Shown here in pieces: positions 5,088 to 55,906 of a stretch of 64,000 nucleotides of DNA. The stretch is from an uncultured delta proteobacterium (lineage in GTDB: Bacteria > Myxococcota_A > Polyangia > Fen-1088): assembly GCA_963796685.1 (NCBI GenBank), contig CAWCMR010000013.1, forward strand, positions 64,001 to 128,000, given 5' to 3'. The position numbers were made by a program, and so were the translations under genes. Numbering within the stretch: position 1 is the stretch's first letter; every line of letters starts with the position of its first letter. The notes beneath the pieces were generated by a model, which ran no database searches, had not been told where the DNA came from, and saw only the letters and a program-made list of their open reading frames with translations.

Positions 5088-6272
5088 ATGAAGATTCACG
5101 AGTACCAAGCCAAGGCACTGCTTTCGAAGCTCGGGCTGCCCGTCCCCATGGGCATACCCGTGTTGGACCTGGGGGGCGTGACGGCCGCGGCCGAGAAGAT
5201 CATCCAGGCCACCCAGAACGAAACCGTGGTGGTCAAGGCCCAGATCCACGCCGGCGGTCGAGGCAAGGGAGGCGGCGTGAAGGTGGTCAAGGGTGCGGCG
5301 GCGGCCCAGGAGGCGGGAGCGAAGATCTTCGGTCGGCCGCTCGTCACCCATCAAACGGGGCCCGAGGGGCGCATCGTGAAACGCCTGCTCGTCGAGCAGG
5401 GCATGGCCATCGCTCGCGAGCTGTACGCCTCGGTGCTGCTCGATCGCGGGTGCAGCCGGGTCGTGGTCATGGTCTCGGCCGCGGGCGGCATGGACATCGA
5501 GGAGGTCGCGGCCAAGTCTCCCGAGAGCATCCTCATGGAGCACGTGGATCCGACGGTCGGCCTAGCGGCCTACCAGGCGCGCAACCTGGCCTATGCCCTG
5601 GGGCTCAAGGATCAAGTGGCCAAGAACGCCACCGCATTTTTCCTCAAGCTCTACGGGGCGTTCATGAGCCTGGACGCCTCGCTGGTCGAGATCAACCCCC
5701 TGGTGGTCACGGCGGACCAGAAGGTGCTGGCGCTGGATTGCAAGATGACCTTCGACGACAACGCCCTCGAGAAGCACAAGGACGTGGCGGAGATGCGCGA
5801 CCCCGACGAGGAGGATCCGACGGAGAGCGAGGCGCGCAAATTCGATCTCAACTTCATCAAGCTGGATGGCAGCATCGGCTGCATGGTCAATGGGGCAGGG
5901 CTGGCCATGGCCACCATGGACATCATCAAGTACTTCGGTTCCAGCCCGGCGAATTTCCTCGACGTGGGGGGCGGCGCCACCCAAGAGAAGGTCACCGCGG
6001 CCTTCAAGATCCTGACCTCCGATCCGTCGGTGAAGGGGATCTTCGTCAACATTTTCGGCGGCATCATGAAGTGCGACGTCATCGCGGGCGGCGTCATCGC
6101 GGCGGTCGCCGAGATCGGCCTGCGCGTACCCCTGGTGGTTCGGTTGGCCGGCACCAACGTCGAGATAGGAACCAAGCTGCTTGCGGAGTCCGGCCTGCCC
6201 ATCACCACGGCGACCGACATGGCCGACGGCGCGCGCAAAGTGGTTGAGCTGGTTTCCGGGAGAAAGAACTAA
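5088..6272 (+). CDS. sucC: Succinyl-CoA synthetase beta subunit
   Basis: MKIHEYQAK start, [36 protein letters not shown]. Confidence 0.97.
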
Positions 6273-46548: not shown

Positions 46549-48174
46549 ATGAAACGCTTCGCTCTCACCATCGCGTTTGTGGTCGGTGCCTGCGCCAAGC
46601 AACCGCGTAGCATGGCCGAGACCAAGACGGTTGCGCCGCCAGCGTCAGCCAAGGCGGCTTCCGCCGCGGAGACCAAGCGCATCCGGCGGGCACAGGTCGC
46701 GGGCTCGTGGTACCCAGGGGACAAGGAGCACCTCGCACCGTTCATCGATGAGGTGCTCGACGAGGTGAAACCTCCTAAGGTCGACGGCAAGGTCATTGCC
46801 TTGATCTCGCCGCACGCGGGCTATCGCTTTTCGGGCAAGGCGGCGGCGACGGGCTATGCCCTGCTGCGCGGGCAGGATATCCGGCGGGTGATCGTGTTGG
46901 CGATTTCCCACCACCTGCCGTTCCGCGGGGCCTCCATCCCGGACGTTACGCACTTCGAAACCCCGCTCGGGCTCATTCCCCTCGACAGCGCCGCCGTGGC
47001 GCGCCTGCGCCGCAGCTCGGTGGTCGGTGACGTCGAGCGGGCCGAGATGGGGGAACATTCACTGGAGATGCAGTTGCCCTTTCTCCAGCGTGTGCTGCCG
47101 AGCTTCAGCCTGGTACCCATCCTGGTAGGAGAAATGCGCGACGCGGACTACGCCGCGCTGGCCGATGTCTTGGCCGAGATCGTCGACGCGCACACCCTGG
47201 TCGTGGCTTCCAGCGATTTCACCCATCGGGGTGAGAACTACGGCTACGAGGTTCCGGAGGGCAAGGGAACGATTCAGGAACGGCTCGCCCGCGTGGACGA
47301 CGGGTCGGTCGAACAGATCCTCAAGCTGCGGCGACGCGGTCTGCTCGACCACGCGGAGCGAACCGGCACGACCATCTGCGGGCTGCATCCCATCGCGCTC
47401 TTGCTGGAGCTCCTCTCGAAATTCCCTGGCGTGCGCGGGCAGGTCGTCAGTCGTTACACGTCGGGCGACGTGACCTCGGATTGGTCGAGCAGCGTGACAT
47501 ACGTGGATGTGGCGTTCACGGGGAAATGGCCTGAGAATTCCAAACTGACGGCGGCCAGGGTAGGGGGAGAGAAGATGTTTCCACTCAGCGACGAAGATCG
47601 GACCACACTGTTGCGCTTGGCGCGGGCCTCGCTCGAGGCCTCCGTGCACAAGGGCGCCTTCGATGCGTCGGTCAAGAAGGCGGTTCCCATGACGCCATCG
47701 CTCGGACGCAAGGCCGGTGCCTTCGTCACCTTGAAGTGCAAGATGAACGACGACGGGCGCTGCGTGGGACGCGGGGACGACTTGCGCGGCTGCATCGGCA
47801 CCATCGAGCCCACGGACTCCGTGTACGACACGGTGGCCATGCGCGCGGCCAGCGCGGCGCTGGAGGACACGCGTTTTCCGCATACCGTCAGCGTGCCGGA
47901 ATTGCCCTTCATCACCGTCGAGATCTCGGTGCTGACGCCGCCCGTGCCGGTGAAGAGCGCCGAGGAAATCGTCATCGGGAAACACGGGATCATCCTCAGC
48001 TCGGGCTGGAGTCGCGCGACGTTCCTGCCCCAGGTCGCGTCCGAGCAGGGCTGGGATCGCGAGACCACGCTGCGCCACCTGGCGCGCAAGGCCGGGCTCG
48101 GCGAAGACGCATGGAAGAAGGCGGAATACCGGGTCTACGAAGCCATTGTTTTCGGCGAAGACCAACACCGCTAG
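46549..48174 (+). CDS. amrB: AmmeMemoRadiSam protein B (Memo) fused to protein A (AMMECR1), with lipoprotein signal
   Basis: MKRFALTIAFVVGAC lipobox; VAGSWYP, PHAGYRFSG, EHSLEMQLPFLQ, SSDFTH, TICG (Memo); GAFVTL, LRGCIG, EISVLT, ATFLPQVA (AMMECR1). Confidence 0.93.
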   Translation: MKRFALTIAFVVGACAKQPRSMAETKTVAPPASAKAASAAETKRIRRAQVAGSWYPGDKEHLAPFIDEVLDEVKPPKVDGKVIALISPHAGYRFSGKAAATGYALLRGQDIRRVIVLAISHHLPFRGASIPDVTHFETPLGLIPLDSAAVARLRRSSVVGDVERAEMGEHSLEMQLPFLQRVLPSFSLVPILVGEMRDADYAALADVLAEIVDAHTLVVASSDFTHRGENYGYEVPEGKGTIQERLARVDDGSVEQILKLRRRGLLDHAERTGTTICGLHPIALLLELLSKFPGVRGQVVSRYTSGDVTSDWSSSVTYVDVAFTGKWPENSKLTAARVGGEKMFPLSDEDRTTLLRLARASLEASVHKGAFDASVKKAVPMTPSLGRKAGAFVTLKCKMNDDGRCVGRGDDLRGCIGTIEPTDSVYDTVAMRAASAALEDTRFPHTVSVPELPFITVEISVLTPPVPVKSAEEIVIGKHGIILSSGWSRATFLPQVASEQGWDRETTLRHLARKAGLGEDAWKKAEYRVYEAIVFGEDQHR

Positions 48175-48397
48175 CCCGCATTGTTCACCACGATAGGCTT
48201 GCCGACGGGAATGCCTGAAGGGAGCGTTTCCTGTACCACGAAGAGTGGCGGGCTAGCTCGATTGTCATGGGAACCCTGGGAGGGTTCCCAAACCCTCCCG
48301 CGACGCTTCGCTGCCGGCAAAGCCGGCAGGCTCCGCACGCGTTTGCTAGCCCGCGCGGGATATCGTGTTAGCGCGACTCATGAGTAGTGCGGGCTAG
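48170..48397. repeat. Array of four alternating GCTAGCCCGC/GCGGGCTAG motifs enclosing hairpins
   Basis: Copies at 48170 (fwd), 48248 (rev), 48345 (fwd), 48389 (rev); perfect stems 48268-48290, 48278-48299, 48311-48329. Confidence 0.75.
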
Positions 48398-48422
48398 AAC
48401 GATCACGCGCTATACTTCGGGC

Positions 48423-49481
48423 GTGGCTGGGGACGAGAACAGATCGGATCGCCGCCGCTTTCTGCAGACCTTGGGCGCGGGTGCCTTGGCGGTCACGGGT
48501 TGCAGCTCGTCGTGCGCGGGCTCGCACGTGGCTCGTGTGCAATCCACGCTCGTTGCGACCAGGACGCAAGCAGCGCTCGCCAAGCTGCCACCGGGCAAGC
48601 CGCGCGTGGTGGTGGTGCGGGCCAAGAAGGTTCTCGGCGATGGCTACGATGCGGATCGCGGAGCCCTGCGCGCCATGCTCGAGGCCGGTTTGATGGCGCT
48701 GTCGGGAGAGAAGAGTGGCAGCGCCGCTCTTGCCCGATACGTTCGTCCGGGCGAGCGGGTCGGTCTGAAGATCAACGGTTTGGCCGGCCGCAAGGCCGCC
48801 ACCCACGTCGAGCTGGTGGACGAGCTCTCGGCGTTGCTCGGCAAGGCCGGCATCGACGGGCGCCAACAGATCGCGTTCGATCGGTTCGCGCGGGATCTCA
48901 GGGCGTCCGGCTTTTCCAGCCAACTGCAACGTGGCGACTATCGCTGTATCGGCAACGACGAGGCCGGCCACGAGGACGAGCTGGTGCAGATGCCGTCCTC
49001 GGCCTCGCGCCTGTCCCGCGTGCTCACGACCCAGGTGGACGCCGTGCTCAATCTCCCCATCCTCAAGCAGCACATGCTGGCGGGCGTGACCGGCGCGCTC
49101 AAGAACAACTTCGGCTGCATCCACAATCCCAACAAGATGCACCTCGACAACTGCGATCCGTACATCGCCGAGGTCAACGCGGTGCCGGCCGTGCGCGACA
49201 AGCAGCGATTGGTCGTCATGGATGCGCTCCGACCGGTGGTCGACAACGGTCCCTCGTATCAACCCGGCATGGCCGAGGTGGCGAATACCCTGCTCTTTGC
49301 CACCGATCTCGTCGCCGTCGACACGGTCGGCCTCGGCATCGTGGAAGACTTGCGCGCCAAGCGCGACCTGCCGAGCCTTGCCAAGGCGGGAATGGCGCCA
49401 ACCTATCTCGCCACCGCGAGCAGGATGGGACTTGGGGTGTCCGAACGCCCGGGCATCGAGATCGTAACAATCGAGGTTTAG
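48423..49481 (+). CDS. DUF362-domain protein with Tat (lipo)protein signal
   Basis: DRRRFLQTLG twin-Arg plus LAVTGC; VGLKIN, NLPILKQH...VTGALKNNFG, DLVAVD; TATACT 6 nt before GTG. Confidence 0.85.
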   Translation: MAGDENRSDRRRFLQTLGAGALAVTGCSSSCAGSHVARVQSTLVATRTQAALAKLPPGKPRVVVVRAKKVLGDGYDADRGALRAMLEAGLMALSGEKSGSAALARYVRPGERVGLKINGLAGRKAATHVELVDELSALLGKAGIDGRQQIAFDRFARDLRASGFSSQLQRGDYRCIGNDEAGHEDELVQMPSSASRLSRVLTTQVDAVLNLPILKQHMLAGVTGALKNNFGCIHNPNKMHLDNCDPYIAEVNAVPAVRDKQRLVVMDALRPVVDNGPSYQPGMAEVANTLLFATDLVAVDTVGLGIVEDLRAKRDLPSLAKAGMAPTYLATASRMGLGVSERPGIEIVTIEV

Positions 49482-49483
49482 CG

Positions 49484-50611
49484 ATGGTTTCCCGACGAGA
49501 CTTCTTCATCACCTGCGGCGGCGCGGGCTGCGCTTTGGCCGCGGGCCTTTCGGCAAGCAGCGTGCTTGGACCGTCGAGGCGGGCCTTCGCCGGCAGCACG
49601 CCGCGCGCCTTTCCTGCCCGCTTTTGGAAGAAGCTGCCGGAAAAGCGCATCGAGTGCGGGCTTTGCCCCAAGCACTGCAAGGTCGAGGATCGCGAGCGCG
49701 GCTTTTGTGGCGTGCGCGAGAACCACGACGGCGAGTACAAGACCCTGGTGTGGGGCCAGCCCTGCGCCGTGCACGTGGATCCCATCGAGAAGAAGCCGCT
49801 CTTTCACTTCCTGCCAGGCAGCCGCGCTTTTTCCGTCGCCACCGCGGGGTGCAACCTGGAGTGCAAGTGCTGCCAGAACTGGGACATCTCGCAGTCGAAG
49901 CCCGAAGACGTCGACTTCCAATTCATGCCGCCAGACGAGGTGGTGCGCGGGGCCAAGGACTACGACGCCTGCGTGACCTTCACCTATTCCGAGCCCATCG
50001 TCTTTCTCGAATACTGCATCGACACCGCCAAGGCCGCGCGCAAGGCCGGGGTGCGCACCACCATGGTCACGGGCGGCTCGGGCGAGGCCGAGCCCATGAA
50101 GGAGGTGCTGCAATACCTCGACGCCGTCAAGGTCGACCTCAAGGGCTTCACCGAGGACTACTACCAGCGCCTGTGCAAAGGCAAGCTCAAGCCCGTGCTC
50201 GACACCCTCGAGGTCATTCGCGCCAGTGGCGTGTGGCTCGAGCTGGTCCACCTGTGCGTGCCCGGTCAGAACGACAGCGAGCCCGAGATCCTCGCCATGT
50301 GCCGCTGGGTGAAGACCCACCTGGGCGCGGACGTGCCGGTGCACTTCACGCGCTTTCACCCGGAATACCAGATGAAGAACGTGCCCCCCACGCCCAACGC
50401 CACCCTGGTCCGCTGCCGCGAGATCGGCCTGGCCGAGGGGCTGCACTTCGTCTACACCGGCAACGTGCCGGGCCTGGCCGGTGAGGACACCTTCTGTCCG
50501 AAATGCGGCAAGGTCGTGGTCGCGCGGCGGGGCTTCGAGCTGGAGGCCGTGCACCTGAAGGCCGGCCGCTGCGAGTTTTGTGGCACTGTCATTCCCGGGG
50601 TATGGAGCTAG
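49484..50611 (+). CDS. amrS: AmmeMemoRadiSam radical SAM enzyme with Tat signal
   Basis: SRRDFF twin-Arg and AFA cleavage site; CGLCPKHC...CGVR; DPIEKKPLFHF; CNLECKCC (CxxxCxxC); RFHPEY; YTGNV; CPKC...CEFC. Confidence 0.94.
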   Translation: MVSRRDFFITCGGAGCALAAGLSASSVLGPSRRAFAGSTPRAFPARFWKKLPEKRIECGLCPKHCKVEDRERGFCGVRENHDGEYKTLVWGQPCAVHVDPIEKKPLFHFLPGSRAFSVATAGCNLECKCCQNWDISQSKPEDVDFQFMPPDEVVRGAKDYDACVTFTYSEPIVFLEYCIDTAKAARKAGVRTTMVTGGSGEAEPMKEVLQYLDAVKVDLKGFTEDYYQRLCKGKLKPVLDTLEVIRASGVWLELVHLCVPGQNDSEPEILAMCRWVKTHLGADVPVHFTRFHPEYQMKNVPPTPNATLVRCREIGLAEGLHFVYTGNVPGLAGEDTFCPKCGKVVVARRGFELEAVHLKAGRCEFCGTVIPGVWS

Positions 50612-52779
50612 TCGCCACCTCCGGGGTCCGCCGAGCCGTCACGGTTGCCGTCGCGGCCGCGGGGTTCGCCGCGCTGCTGGCGCAAGTGGTCCTGCTGCGC
50701 GAGCTCCTCGCTTCCTCGCAAGGCAACGAGCTGGTGCTGGGCATCGTGCTCGCGCTGTGGCTGCTGCTCGTGGGGCTGGCGAGCGCTCTCGGTGGGCGGA
50801 TGGTGCGACGGCCGGAACGGGCGGCACGATGGCTCGGCCGCTTGCTGCTGTTGGCGCCGTTGCTCCTCTTCGCCTCGCTGTGGCTGACCCGCTGGGCAGG
50901 GCCGTCGGCGCTGGGACAGACGCCGTCCATTTCGGTTCTGGTGGGCGTGTCGGTGGTCGCCCTGGCACCTGCGTGCCTGCTCGGCGGACTGTGTTTCGCC
51001 TGGGCCCTGGCAGCGCTTCCAGGCCAGGGTCGCGCCGCGGGCCTCTACGCCGCGGAGACCCTGGGCTCGGCCGTTGCAGGGGCCTTGTTTCACTTCTTGC
51101 TCGCCGATCGGCTCTCCAGCTCATGGATCGTGCTCCTCGCGGGGGCCGGCTGCGTGGCGGCGAGCCTTCCCCTGGCCTTTGGGCGCAGATGGGTCGGCGT
51201 CACGACCGGCGTGGCCATGGTGGCGCTGTCGGCAATCGCCTGCCCAGCGCTCTCCACGGCCCTGGCGACGGCCCGCTTCCCGGGCGAGCACGTCCTTGCC
51301 CTGCGGCCCTCACGCTACGGGCTGCTTGCCGTCGTCGAGCGCGGCGGGCAGCGGGTGTTCTTTCACGACGGCGAGCTGTTGTTCACCAGCGAGGACGAAA
51401 TCGCAGCCGAGGAAAGCACGCACCTGCCTCTGCTTCTGCACCCGAATCCGCGACGGCTCTTGCTCGTGGGCGGCGGTCTCGGCGGGGGTCTCGTCGAGGC
51501 GCTCAAGCACGAGCCCGACCGCATCGACTACGTGGAGATGGATCCGGGCGTGTTTCCGCTCGCGCACAGGTTCGCCGACGAGGCCACGCGGGCCGCGCTC
51601 GCGGATCCCCGTGTTCACGCGGTGGCGGCCGATGCACGGCAGTGGCTACGCGAATCGGTCGGCCGATACGACGTCATCGTCATCAACCTGCCGATCCCCG
51701 AGAACGCGCTCCTGGCACGCCTGCTCAGCCGCGAATGCTTCGAGGACGCCCGTCGCGCCCTGGCCGCAGGTGGAATCTTGGCCCTGGCCACGCCCGGATC
51801 GGACGCCTACCTCGACGCGGGCGCCAGGCAACGGCACGCCTCGCTCCTGGCTGCGCTCGACGCCGTCTTCCCCGCCGTGGGCGTGGCCCCTGGCGGCCAA
51901 ACCATCCTGTGGGCGGCCGAGAAGGATGTGGATGCCCGACCGACCGTGCTGGCAGCGCGCCTGGGGCAGCGCGGGCTTCATCTCGCACAAGTCGGGAAGA
52001 CCTGGCTTTTCGATCGCCTGCTGCCCTTTCACGCCCGGGACTACCGCCGAGCCGTCGCGACGGCCCTTCCCATCGAGAATCGCGACTTTCGTCCCGTGGT
52101 GTACCTCTTCGGCCTCATCGAGACCTTGCAGCGTTTTTCGCAGCCGGTGGCCCGATCCGCGCTCGTGCTCGCGCGCGCGCGGTGGACGCCCTGGGTGCTC
52201 TTGGCCGCTGTGCTCGGCGGAGCGGCAGCGTTCGTTGGGCTCCGGCGCGGACGGCCCGCCCCTGCCTTCGCCGTGGAGGCCTCCGGTGCCGCGGGAATGG
52301 CCTTGCAGTTGGTTTTGCTCCTCGCCTTTCAAGCCCTGCGCGGAAGCCTCTACCATGCCATGGGAGGGCTCATCGCCGGCTTCATGGCCGGCATGGGCGT
52401 TGGCGCGCTGGTGGCGGGGCGATTCCTCGGCCGGCCGCGTGTGCTCGCCCGCGCTTGCGCGGGGGCGGCGGGGGCGGGGCTGCTGACTGTGTTGGCCCTC
52501 GAGCTTGGGCGTGCGTTTCCCGGTTGGAGCGCCACCCTCATCATCCTTGCCACCATCGTGGTGGGCGCCAGCGTGGGCGCGGTCTATCCCGTGGCCGTGC
52601 ACGTGGCCAAGCTCCCCAACGCCGCCTCACGGCTCTATGCCTGGGATCTCGCGGGCGCATCCATCGCCGCGGCGTTTGTCGCTCTGGTGGCCATTCCGCT
52701 GCTCGGGCTGGCCGAGGTAGCGCTGCTCTCGGCGGTCCTTTGCGCGGCGGCGGCGGTGGCGAATCTCGGATCAGCTTGA
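50602..52779 (+). CDS. Membrane protein with spermidine-synthase-like SAM-binding domain between two TM bundles
   Basis: QVVLLRELL...GNEL, LYAAETLGS, PLLLHPNP, LLVGGGLGG, VEMDP, YDVIVINLP, ENRDFRP, LYAWDLAG. Confidence 0.88.
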   Translation: MELVATSGVRRAVTVAVAAAGFAALLAQVVLLRELLASSQGNELVLGIVLALWLLLVGLASALGGRMVRRPERAARWLGRLLLLAPLLLFASLWLTRWAGPSALGQTPSISVLVGVSVVALAPACLLGGLCFAWALAALPGQGRAAGLYAAETLGSAVAGALFHFLLADRLSSSWIVLLAGAGCVAASLPLAFGRRWVGVTTGVAMVALSAIACPALSTALATARFPGEHVLALRPSRYGLLAVVERGGQRVFFHDGELLFTSEDEIAAEESTHLPLLLHPNPRRLLLVGGGLGGGLVEALKHEPDRIDYVEMDPGVFPLAHRFADEATRAALADPRVHAVAADARQWLRESVGRYDVIVINLPIPENALLARLLSRECFEDARRALAAGGILALATPGSDAYLDAGARQRHASLLAALDAVFPAVGVAPGGQTILWAAEKDVDARPTVLAARLGQRGLHLAQVGKTWLFDRLLPFHARDYRRAVATALPIENRDFRPVVYLFGLIETLQRFSQPVARSALVLARARWTPWVLLAAVLGGAAAFVGLRRGRPAPAFAVEASGAAGMALQLVLLLAFQALRGSLYHAMGGLIAGFMAGMGVGALVAGRFLGRPRVLARACAGAAGAGLLTVLALELGRAFPGWSATLIILATIVVGASVGAVYPVAVHVAKLPNAASRLYAWDLAGASIAAAFVALVAIPLLGLAEVALLSAVLCAAAAVANLGSA

Positions 52780-53855: not shown

Positions 53856-54860
53856 TCAGAACCAGTAGCCGCCGCCCGCCCGCAACCCGAAGAAACGCGA
53901 ATGGACCTCGACGTCGGCCGACTCGCCGGTGGTGGCGCTTTGCACCTGGTTGTTCTGGAAGCCCCATTGGTAGGTGCCGCGGAAATCCAGGAAGCCGTGC
54001 TGCCCCAACGCCCAGATCATGCCGAAGCCGGTCTGGACGAGGAAGCCGTGGGCCGTGCCGGGATCGGCGTAGACCTTGACCAGGTTGGAGGCAAACAGGA
54101 GCGAATATCCGGGGGCCGCGAACACCAGCAAGCGGAGCCGGCGGGCCGCGGAAACCGTCACGCCGAGCTGGGGAAGGAAGTCGACTTCGCGTCCGGTGCC
54201 GCCGAAGAGGTTGTTGTTCGAAGACGAGGCGGGGCCGGCGAGACTCCACTTGACCGAAGGCAGGAACTGCACCGCGAAGGCCAGGTACAGATAGCGGTGC
54301 AGGTCGACTTGCACGAATGGAACGATGCCGGCGGTCCCGGCGGTGCTGCCCGAATAGGCCAGCAGGGGCTCGCCTTTGTAATTGAGGCTGTAGGACAGGG
54401 TCCCTTGCGGCATGACAACGAGGGCAGCGCCGATTCGCAACCTGCCGCTCGGTAGGGGCGAGGGCGGAGGTTCGGCGCTGACCGCCGGCCGGTAACCGGC
54501 GCCGGCGTAGGCTGGAGGATAACCCGGGTAGGGCGAGGCGTAGGGTGAGTAGCCCCGCGGGTAGGTCGGGTATCCGGGAGGGTAAGGAGCAGGGGGCGGA
54601 TAGCCGTACGCGGGCGAATAGGGATAACCAGGTGGATAGGGATAGGCGGGCGGATAGGGATAGGGCGGCTGCGCTGCGCCCGGGGCAGGCGGCGGCGTCT
54701 GGGCAGGCGGCTGCTGCTGCAACCATGGGGCTGGCACGGCACTCGGCGAGGCGGTGGGCGTCGGAGGTGCCGGCGTTGCTCCCGGCGCGGGGCCGCTTTG
54801 CGCGAAGGCTGGCCCAGCCAAGAAACCTAGCGCCGCCACCGCGACCAAGGGGCTTCTCAT
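53856..54860 (-). CDS. Outer membrane beta-barrel protein with Pro/Tyr-rich N-terminus
   Basis: Signal AFAQ; YPP(A/G)YP repeats; amphipathic strands; C-terminal GYWF. Confidence 0.75.
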   Translation of the reverse strand: MRSPLVAVAALGFLAGPAFAQSGPAPGATPAPPTPTASPSAVPAPWLQQQPPAQTPPPAPGAAQPPYPYPPAYPYPPGYPYSPAYGYPPPAPYPPGYPTYPRGYSPYASPYPGYPPAYAGAGYRPAVSAEPPPSPLPSGRLRIGAALVVMPQGTLSYSLNYKGEPLLAYSGSTAGTAGIVPFVQVDLHRYLYLAFAVQFLPSVKWSLAGPASSSNNNLFGGTGREVDFLPQLGVTVSAARRLRLLVFAAPGYSLLFASNLVKVYADPGTAHGFLVQTGFGMIWALGQHGFLDFRGTYQWGFQNNQVQSATTGESADVEVHSRFFGLRAGGGYWF

Positions 54861-55906
54861 GGCTGCACCCCCTGCAAGAGCGCGTATCGGGCAACTCTCG
54901 CTCGCATGATGTCCATGATTTCCAGCGCGCGGTTCTCGAAGGAAAGGAAGCTCGCCCCCTCGTACTTGGAGGCATCGAGGACATTGCCATAGCGGGCGGT
55001 CGCTTGCTCGATGGTCGTAAGCTGGCTCGAGTTGAGCGGCAGGTCGCACACCGTCGCGATCGGGTTCATCAGGTTGGCCCCGTAGGACTGAGGATCGAGG
55101 TGCTCGAGCCCGTAGGCGTGACCGACCTCGTGGGCGATCACGATGTCGGGCTCGGGCAGCACGAAATCGGTCAGGTTCACGCCGATGAAGACCGTGGGCG
55201 AGAAGTCCGACTCGTTCAGGACATCGGCCAAGGATGTTCCCAGGTCCGAGCCCGCGGCCGAGTTGACGAGGGCTTGCGAGAGCCCGAGGCCGGCCACCCC
55301 CCAGGCCATCTCGGAGGCGTCCGGACTGGGATCGAGTGCCGCGATCCGTTTAAGCAGCACGACGTTGATGACGTTCTCCTCGGGCTCGGAATAAGCGTGA
55401 AAGAACGCCTTGACGTTGTAAAACATGGCCTCGCCTATGGCCTGGTTGCAGTCGGTGGTGGGGTAGGCCGACGAGGCGCAACTGGGATCCACGTTCGTGT
55501 TCGTGCGCATCCAGTCGGTGATGGCCTGCTCGTTGAGCACGATGGCGTGGTCGAGCGGAACCGAAATGACGTCGTAGCGGGTGAACATGGTCACGCCGTA
55601 GTAGTCGTAGTAGCGCTTGAGCCCGCCCGCGAAGCGGACCACGTCGTCCATGGTGATGCCATTGCCGCGAAAGATGCGCAGCTCGGTACGGCGGTCGAGC
55701 TTGCGCGGCACGTACGGCGCGCACTTCGCATCCGGGGTGTAGTCGAAGAGACTCTGGTACGAGGTCGGGTCGCCGGGAGCTCCGGGAAAGCCCGGATCCT
55801 GGACGACCGGTTCGAAGAAATCCACGCGCTCGTCGGAGCCGCAGCCCGAAGTCGCCAGACCGGCCACGAGCATGAGGATGGTTACTAGAATGATGGGACG
55901 CACCAA
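54857..55906 (-). CDS. Metzincin (matrixin-like) zinc metalloprotease lipoprotein
   Basis: Lipobox TSGC; HEVGHAYGLEH (HExxHxxGxxH); Met-turn NLMNP. Confidence 0.85.
   Translation of the reverse strand: MVRPIILVTILMLVAGLATSGCGSDERVDFFEPVVQDPGFPGAPGDPTSYQSLFDYTPDAKCAPYVPRKLDRRTELRIFRGNGITMDDVVRFAGGLKRYYDYYGVTMFTRYDVISVPLDHAIVLNEQAITDWMRTNTNVDPSCASSAYPTTDCNQAIGEAMFYNVKAFFHAYSEPEENVINVVLLKRIAALDPSPDASEMAWGVAGLGLSQALVNSAAGSDLGTSLADVLNESDFSPTVFIGVNLTDFVLPEPDIVIAHEVGHAYGLEHLDPQSYGANLMNPIATVCDLPLNSSQLTTIEQATARYGNVLDASKYEGASFLSFENRALEIMDIMRARVARYALLQGVQP

Follow-up and report, generated by a model that had tools for sequence, protein, structure and literature searches.

An AmmeMemoRadiSam operon with predicted export leaders in an uncultured member of the Polyangia

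Background

The question whether a radical S-adenosylmethionine (SAM) enzyme may leave the cytoplasm and work in the cell envelope is raised by a four-gene cassette of an uncultured delta proteobacterium (GTDB lineage Bacteria; Myxococcota_A; Polyangia; Fen-1088). The cassette lies on the + strand at positions 46549-52779 of a 64,000-nucleotide stretch of DNA, referred to below as the window, which comprises positions 64,001 to 128,000 of contig CAWCMR010000013.1 in GenBank assembly GCA_963796685.1. It encodes an AmmeMemoRadiSam system, made up of the radical SAM enzyme AmrS, the Memo protein AmrB and the AMMECR1 protein AmrA, together with a DUF362 protein and a membrane protein. Radical SAM enzymes depend on SAM, on a low-potential electron donor and on shielding of their clusters, and for these reasons are held to be cytoplasmic. 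In this cassette all of the soluble proteins begin with leaders of the Sec or twin-arginine translocation (Tat) type. The chances appear about even that the operon is a member of a widespread extracytoplasmic AmmeMemoRadiSam variant with proteins acting at the outer face, and such a variant is apparently undescribed. In the literature searched, which did not include supplements, no paper was found to report Tat export of a radical SAM enzyme or an exported AmrS. The protein families, the leaders with their conservation and co-variation, and the topology of the membrane protein are documented below by sequence and comparison.

Operon organization and protein families

The first gene, g1 (46549..48174), encodes a putative 541-residue lipoprotein precursor in which AmrB and AmrA are fused. 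Its Pfam matches are to Memo (194 bits, residues 48-319) and AMMECR1 (158 bits, residues 355-533), and its NCBIfam matches are to TIGR04336 (222.3 bits, cut-off 26) and TIGR04335 (142.7 bits, cut-off 99). The His/Asp/Cys residues of Memo and the LRGCIG motif of AMMECR1 are kept across an alignment of 23 fusions. The second gene, g2 (48387..49481), encodes a 364-residue DUF362 protein (PF04015, 83 bits against a cut-off of 24), a putative Tat-type lipoprotein precursor. The third, g3 (49484..50611), encodes AmrS, with 375 residues and a TIGR04337 match of 396.3 bits (cut-off 220) that spans residues 45-374. The CX3CX2C motif of AmrS at residues 123-130 (C123/C127/C130), an N-terminal Cys set (C58/C61/C65/C75) and a C-terminal one (C338/C341/C363/C366) are invariant in 35 sequences, and CX3CX2C is kept by all 83 AmrS open reading frames (ORFs) examined. 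The fourth gene, g4 (50602..52779), encodes a 725-residue membrane protein with 14 transmembrane (TM) helices and a central SpeE-like domain; it passes PF01564 (59 bits, cut-off 22.9) and falls below the NCBIfam cut-offs of PRK03612 (138.3 against 472 bits) and TIGR00417 (80 against 250 bits).

With AmrS, Memo and AMMECR1 all above their cut-offs and g1 one gene away from g3, the cassette belongs to the AmmeMemoRadiSam family, and it departs from the usual leaderless, cytoplasmic form, which is no part of how the family is formally defined, in that all three components have N-terminal leaders. An earlier note on this DNA had listed the four genes with their leader sequences and had described the last three genes as tightly coupled. 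All were recovered at the positions given above, and the coupling is plain from a distance of 2 nt between the g2 stop and the g3 start and an overlap of 10 nt between g3 and g4; the gap between g1 and g2 is 212 nt. In the nearest relative, locus L006 (82% identity), all four genes recur in unchanged order.

N-terminal leaders and their conservation

Leaders were judged against TATFIND-style criteria and the lipobox pattern [LVI][ASTVIG][GAS]C. The leader of g1, MKRFALTIAFVVGAC (46549..46593), is of the Sec/signal peptidase II type, with the lipobox VGAC at Cys15. In g2 a twin arginine (RR) at residues 22-23 is followed by FLQTLGAGALAVTGC, and the leader core RRRFLQTLGAGALAVTGC (48450..48503) runs from the twin-arginine motif to the lipobox VTGC at Cys39 (RRRFLQ...AVTGC). 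The leader of g3 (residues 1-36, 49484..49591) consists of MVSRRDFF, an uncharged stretch of 25 residues and the sequence SRRAFA followed by G, ending at residue 36. It fits the Tat consensus S-R-R-x-F-F, has basic residues ahead of the AxA site, and lies outside the TIGR04337 model, which starts only at residue 45. By inspection and our own rules, the Tat substrate pattern is present in g3 and g2 and the lipobox pattern in g1 and g2. The G+C content at third codon positions (GC3) is 0.76-0.78 in the leader-coding parts, 0.84-0.90 in the gene bodies and 0.57 in the 105 nt upstream of the g1 ATG. The annotated start codons are favoured because leader GC3 is close to that of the gene bodies and, at g1, falls from 0.78 to 0.57 upstream of the start.

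A cysteine-containing segment (TCGGAGC) was seen within the hydrophobic part of the AmrS Tat leader at window positions 49511-49534. Cysteines recur in the hydrophobic stretch of the AmrS leaders P0001-P0050 (LPCLAAC, RCACG, KCAGC), which is unusual for a signal peptide, and they lie too near the RR for a normal lipobox. AmrS itself was considered as a lipoprotein and rejected as such, with Cys11 and Cys16 too close after the RR and the AFA site further downstream.

With g3 as query, at least 7980 of 8000 scored candidates reached E <= 1e-30. Among the 120 best (identity 49-89%), 102 have RR upstream of the enzyme domain, with source names that include Polyangia, Calditrichaeota, Armatimonadetes, Eisenbacteria, Bryobacteraceae and Saccharicenans. 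The other 18 comprise ten gene calls that start inside the leader, five fragments, one RK, one RR missed by the script and one truly leaderless protein. Among nine aligned DUF362 partners the RR is invariant (9/9), and a Cys at the lipobox position is found only in the window and in L006. The g3 leader is thus more than a chance feature, because RR recurs in its nearest homologues and in the aligned DUF362 partners alike, and the conservation in orthologues on which the earlier note had made its proposal depend is borne out.

Related loci were sampled as the best 80 of at least 594 relatives among at least 600 pattern-matched stretches of reference genomes from many phyla. Their ORFs were called and then searched with profiles seeded from the proteins of the window. 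The AmrS set had 82 ORFs, the window's included; the partial sequence of L071 was left out, and L038 was reclassified, a frameshift hiding its hydrophobic N-terminus. In L038 the AmrS N-terminus (anchor and domain start) lies in another frame around 5190-5430, as a frameshift of either the assembly or the gene. By leader, the 82 ORFs divide into 33 with RR, 11 with a Tat-like KR or RK (mostly Bacteroidota, e.g. SKREFIK), 14 with a Sec- or TM-type leader and 24 with none. In a quick IQ-TREE tree of these 82 rows, with SH-aLRT as the only support, 14 leaderless AmrS form a clade of their own (SH-aLRT 95), mostly from Gammaproteobacteria, and outside it 58 of 68 rows have a leader. Partners lie nearby in 10 of the 14 members of the leaderless clade, most as separate, leaderless Memo and AMMECR1 proteins.

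Leaders co-vary between the partners. Where a Memo or AMMECR1 partner lies within 5 kb, it has an N-terminal leader at 24/28 leader-type and 4/15 leaderless AmrS, and it is a fusion at 25/28 and 6/15, respectively. A g4-like protein occurs within 5 kb of 34/58 leader-type and 5/24 leaderless AmrS, and DUF362 within 5 kb of 11/58 and 0/24, with the RR motif in 9 of the 11. The claim of export signals on all three soluble components thus holds, the signals being present, conserved and co-varying. The expected co-occurrence across genomes was found in part: leader-type AmrS goes with leader-bearing fusions and g4-like proteins, and DUF362 does not follow the pattern at most loci. In a KSB1 locus, the Memo-AMMECR1 fusion is immediately followed by one more AMMECR1 gene, free-standing and without a leader (L014:11617-12174). 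Judged from these sequence patterns, export of the window's proteins is probably real.

Split leaders and CcdA-type neighbours

Five leaderless AmrS have a g4-like neighbour, and two of these (in L033 and L081) are an extra copy beside a leader-type AmrS of the same locus. The remaining three, L020 (Nitrospiraceae), L043 (Lentisphaerales) and L065 (Pirellulales), have an AmrS without the leader and the first 8-9 profile positions. In all three, the gene is directly followed by an ORF of 44-62 residues with a TRR motif and a hydrophobic stretch (L020:4813-4947; L043:9990-10157; L065:5373-5561), which overlaps the AmrS stop in two of the three loci. The L020 mini-ORF ends in ...EAMFWRKVD, corresponding to EAxFYxKL, the opening segment of the AmrS domain elsewhere. 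These mini-ORFs look like a Tat leader that has been split off and would be supplied in trans. Hitchhiker export by Tat, in which just one of the partners has the signal, occurs for example with the small and large subunits of hydrogenases. As the Tat leader is kept though split from AmrS, what hitchhiker export would need is present.

All ORFs within 7 kb of AmrS were clustered for 61 leader-type loci. A DsbD_2/CcdA-type protein of about 215 residues occurs in 7 of the 61, often abutting AmrS (L017:10007-10723; L029:2890-3558; L034:4177-4815; L035:10006-10686; L040:3760-4680; L045:12167-12814; L058:6625-7272), and the six of these that were tested all match DsbD_2 (PF13386) at 51-78 bits. The seven loci belong to Omnitrophota and Planctomycetota, and all have a Sec-like AmrS leader: six fall in the Sec/TM class, and that of L029, scored as RR by rule, reads MRRILSACMVLFLL. 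These neighbours are membrane conduits for thiol reductant of the CcdA/DsbD type, proteins that are not known to serve any but extracytoplasmic acceptors. Their genes in Sec-type loci hint at cysteine handling outside. A search of the window's own genome (88.6% complete) gave no PF13386 match. The other recurrent neighbour clusters were antisense shadows of known genes, or two-component regulators and ABC ATPases without consistent placement.

The membrane protein g4

The AlphaFold2 (AF2) model of g4, made from a 21-row alignment, has a pLDDT of 88.4 and a pTM of 0.90 and consists of seven TM helices, a SpeE fold (residues 230-525, 51289..52176) and seven further TM helices, so that the earlier description of the last gene product as polytopic is correct. 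The most positive loops of the family, by net charge, are the N-terminus (+2.0), 59-80 (+2.4), 190-202 (+2.6), 545-558 (+2.6) and 602-618 (+3.0). The SpeE-like domain is predicted to be periplasmic because it is flanked by TM7 and TM8, and each of these helices separates it from a positive loop (190-202 and 545-558). In Foldseek comparisons with SpeE structures (1inl and 1uir) it has a TMt of about 0.72. Aligned to SpeE of T. maritima (1inl), it retains the GGG motif and the ribose-binding Glu but has NLPIP in place of DSTDP; the family consensus at this site is NxPxP. Both catalytic Asp residues being replaced, g4 is not a canonical aminopropyltransferase, and its domain, to judge from the motifs retained, probably still binds an adenosyl-type ligand. 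That g4 supplies or recycles SAM across the membrane is the most speculative part of the proposal and rather improbable; it is argued from analogy and is put forward tentatively.

Similar motifs were seen in TM5 (Y..E..G...GG, residues 149-160) and TM13 (LYAADL.G...GAL, residues 679-690), and polar residues are conserved inside helices (Q28, E43, E152, Q577 and D682). These features may reflect an internal 7+7 duplication and mark a polar path or site in the membrane.

The DUF362 partner

The earlier note had cast the DUF362 protein as a redox or Fe-S partner of AmrS, and this part of its proposal is not supported. In the alignment of nine sequences a single Cys is invariant and a cysteine cluster motif is lacking, the model resembles a LarA-type enzyme, and the protein accompanies few of the leader-type AmrS ORFs. 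For the window's subfamily, lacking a cluster motif, the Fe-S assignment was rejected. The AF2 model of g2 has a pLDDT of 79.7, and its best Foldseek matches in the Protein Data Bank (PDB) are racemases of the LarA family, with E-values of 1.3e-6 to 4.9e-4 (best match 7s91, E 1.3e-6, TMq 0.42). K227, H229, K250 and H252 are invariant in the DUF362 alignment; in LarA, Lys and His serve as ligands of the nickel-pincer cofactor. The LarA-like model fits the placement of DUF362 and DUF2088 (LarA) in one Pfam clan, CL0471, as given in an excerpt of PMC11770544. A DUF362 protein with a cofactor would remain compatible with export by Tat. Sequence searches of the PDB turned up no solved structure for either DUF362 or AmrS.

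At G000 C8:368412-369668 (L088) the genome encodes a LarC nickel-insertion protein (PF01969, 434 bits), of possible interest in view of the LarA-like fold of the DUF362 partner. In two Acidobacteriota loci (L009:6701-8206; L011:14048-15064), a second DUF362 paralogue, more distant and likewise with an RR-type N-terminal region, adjoins a g4-like gene.

Genomic context

The genome encodes TatC (PF00902, 201 bits, G000 C8:737944-738609). It also has a second, leaderless AmrS at C25:276197-277244 (L002:1008-2151, minus strand), in two overlapping frames that reflect a frameshift or an assembly error, and, about 4 kb away, a leaderless AmrB at C25:281402-282202 (L004:1492-2328). The exported set is therefore a paralogous second system. 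A second AmrA was not found, that of the window being the only one in the 88.6% complete genome. Among the sequencing runs listed, a single DNA run contains this DNA, at a small share (0.07), and no RNA run does.

The genes flanking the cassette encode an ABC1 kinase, a PEGA lipoprotein, a weak helix-turn-helix protein and HisG. As they look unrelated, the operon is taken to consist of the four genes only. Downstream, on the minus strand at 54857-55906, is a lipoprotein-like ORF with a leader ending ...LATSGC and an HExxH motif; it has weak reprolysin-type matches (E about 4e-3) and no evident tie to the operon.

Proposed function and alternative explanations

In the proposed arrangement, AmrS would fold and receive its Fe-S clusters in the cytoplasm, possibly also being loaded with SAM, and would then be exported folded by Tat. 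The AmrB-AmrA fusion would pass through Sec and be lipidated, and the DUF362 protein, with its LarA fold and probably a cofactor, would be exported by Tat and lipidated. The SpeE-like domain of g4, presumed to bind an adenosyl ligand, would likewise sit on the outside of the inner membrane, where the enzymes may act jointly on an envelope substrate (a lipid, an isoprenoid or other). What we infer from the sequence patterns is that export takes place, that catalysis occurs outside the cytoplasm, and what kind of substrate is involved. Given export, radical SAM turnover outside is rather more probable than its absence. A joint reading, in which the AmrS clade of more than a dozen phyla carries out multiple-turnover periplasmic radical SAM chemistry, g4 hands SAM across the membrane, and Sec-type lineages assemble clusters outside with a CcdA-type conduit keeping the cysteines reduced, is unlikely in its entirety. 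A complex prediction for AmrB-AmrA (45-541) with AmrS (45-375), made without controls, scored 0.00 against a mark of 0.32 and carries no weight for or against a physical complex. Burroughs et al. (2019) reportedly described Memo contexts beyond AMMECR1 and radical SAM, with links to nucleotide-base and isoprenoid modification.

Several points weigh against an extracytoplasmic system. The strongest argument against a simple export picture is that 14 of the 58 leader-type AmrS have a Sec- or TM-type leader and no RR, and to our knowledge a folded 4Fe-4S enzyme cannot cross the membrane via Sec. In those lineages, therefore, either the clusters are assembled outside or the leader serves a role other than export. 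We also know of no SAM pool, SAM exporter or low-potential reductant in the periplasm. DUF362 is absent from the surroundings of most leader-type AmrS, being near 11 of 58, and g4 has lost both catalytic Asp residues of SpeE. The leader classes come from our own regular expressions and hydropathy windows in place of SignalP or TatP. The loci are mutually related, so that Fisher tests on the partner counts overstate independence, and many of them end at contig edges. All sequences are from metagenome-assembled genomes.

Export may be real without catalysis outside if AmrS performs the radical SAM step in the cytoplasm, before export, with itself or a co-exported protein (DUF362 or the mini-protein, for example) as the target, or if it takes one bound SAM along through Tat and acts once, as a single-use activase. 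This explanation, which we regard as improbable while giving it some weight, agrees with the kinship of AmrS to glycyl-radical activating enzymes (3c8f, E 2.9e-6 in a PDB sequence search, the nearest solved structure; TIGR02493, 68 bits), and with it a periplasmic SAM pool is no longer needed. The HXS defence system, in which according to an excerpt of PMC13128918 an effector is matured by a radical SAM enzyme and is then active in the periplasm, is a parallel. The explanation fits less well with the Sec/lipobox leader of AmrB-AmrA, which means that the fusion crosses unfolded and so meets AmrS only outside. Nor does it agree with the outward-facing domain of adenosyl-binding type in g4, which suggests handling of a nucleotide cofactor outside, or with the CcdA-type conduits of Sec-type loci, which suggest continuing redox needs there.

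Alternatively, the N-terminal segments could be membrane tethers or assembly tags, the catalytic domains staying on the cytoplasmic face with SAM and reductants. The leader class shifts between RR, KR/RK and plain hydrophobic, with at least 14 changes on the tree, which would be tolerable for a mere anchor; Sec-type leaders sit poorly with the export of a 4Fe-4S enzyme, and no periplasmic SAM is known to us. A tether does not call, however, for the specific Tat consensus S/T-R-R-x-F-L-K, which goes beyond hydrophobicity and is found in 102 of the 120 homologues, nor for its re-creation on a separate mini-ORF where AmrS has no leader. Positive charges come first and the hydrophobic segment after them, an order that under the positive-inside rule places the C-terminal domain outside. 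Lipoboxes and AxA sites are found on the partners, an outward orientation is predicted for the g4 domain, and CcdA/DsbD-type proteins are not known to serve any but extracytoplasmic acceptors. On balance this explanation is unlikely.

An annotation artefact, with true starts downstream of the leaders and motifs that are chance matches in GC-rich DNA, is highly improbable: high GC yields many long spurious ORFs and Arg/Ala-rich translations, and g2 begins with GTG and has alternative starts close by, but the leaders are conserved as protein in orthologues of 50-88% identity from many phyla, low-GC ones included, the g3 ATG lies 2 nt past the g2 stop, and GC3 in the leader-coding regions is gene-like.

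If a conserved lineage of many phyla is built for export, either SAM-dependent radical chemistry takes place in the envelope and requires new routes for SAM and electrons, or the enzymes serve in some novel manner, for instance as activases that Tat delivers for a single use. The envelope-facing version is also an entry point to what the Memo/AMMECR1/radical SAM trio does, and it narrows the candidate substrates to membrane or envelope molecules; eukaryotic relatives of the trio are linked to disease. It names as new candidate partners the 14-TM SpeE-like protein, DUF362, the mini twin-arginine protein and CcdA.

Comparison with known systems

The window shares with Tat-exported Fe-S enzymes a twin-arginine leader on an Fe-S protein and a genome that encodes TatC, and it differs in its passenger, a radical SAM enzyme that needs SAM as well as electrons. 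The loci L020, L043 and L065, with the RR leader on a separate mini-protein beside a leaderless AmrS, resemble hitchhiker export, which an excerpt of PMC10924467 states in general terms.

The pyruvate formate-lyase activating enzyme is the nearest solved relative of AmrS, and the 68 bits of g3 for its family, TIGR02493, are far under the cut-off of 232. AmrS, unlike that enzyme, adds an N-terminal Cys motif and a C-terminal Cys4 ribbon, and no glycyl-radical enzyme is encoded nearby. Likewise, the DUF362 protein shares with LarA a Pfam clan and the best structural matches of its model, whereas TM-scores are only about 0.4, identity is 10-15%, and the Tat leader and lipobox are features of g2.

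The membrane-bound polyamine aminopropyltransferase (PRK03612) has in common with g4 an N-terminal TM bundle and a SpeE fold with the GGG motif and the ribose-binding Glu. In g4, by contrast, a second bundle of seven TM helices follows the domain, the domain is predicted to be periplasmic, and the catalytic Asp pair is missing. TmAT/AT3 acyltransferases, in which cytoplasmic acyl-CoA reaches an extracytosolic acceptor via a membrane protein (excerpt of PMC12423673), are a precedent for an outside reaction with a cytoplasmic cofactor, by analogy only and with no kinship to g4 in sequence or fold.

With canonical AmmeMemoRadiSam systems the cassette shares the co-location of the three families, the CX3CX2C and accessory Cys motifs, and a reaction that has no assignment in either. 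It differs in the fusion of AmrA and AmrB behind a lipobox leader, in the Tat leader of AmrS, and in the addition of the 14-TM SpeE-like protein and the Tat-type DUF362 protein. The leaderless systems with separate AmrA and AmrB form a separate AmrS clade.

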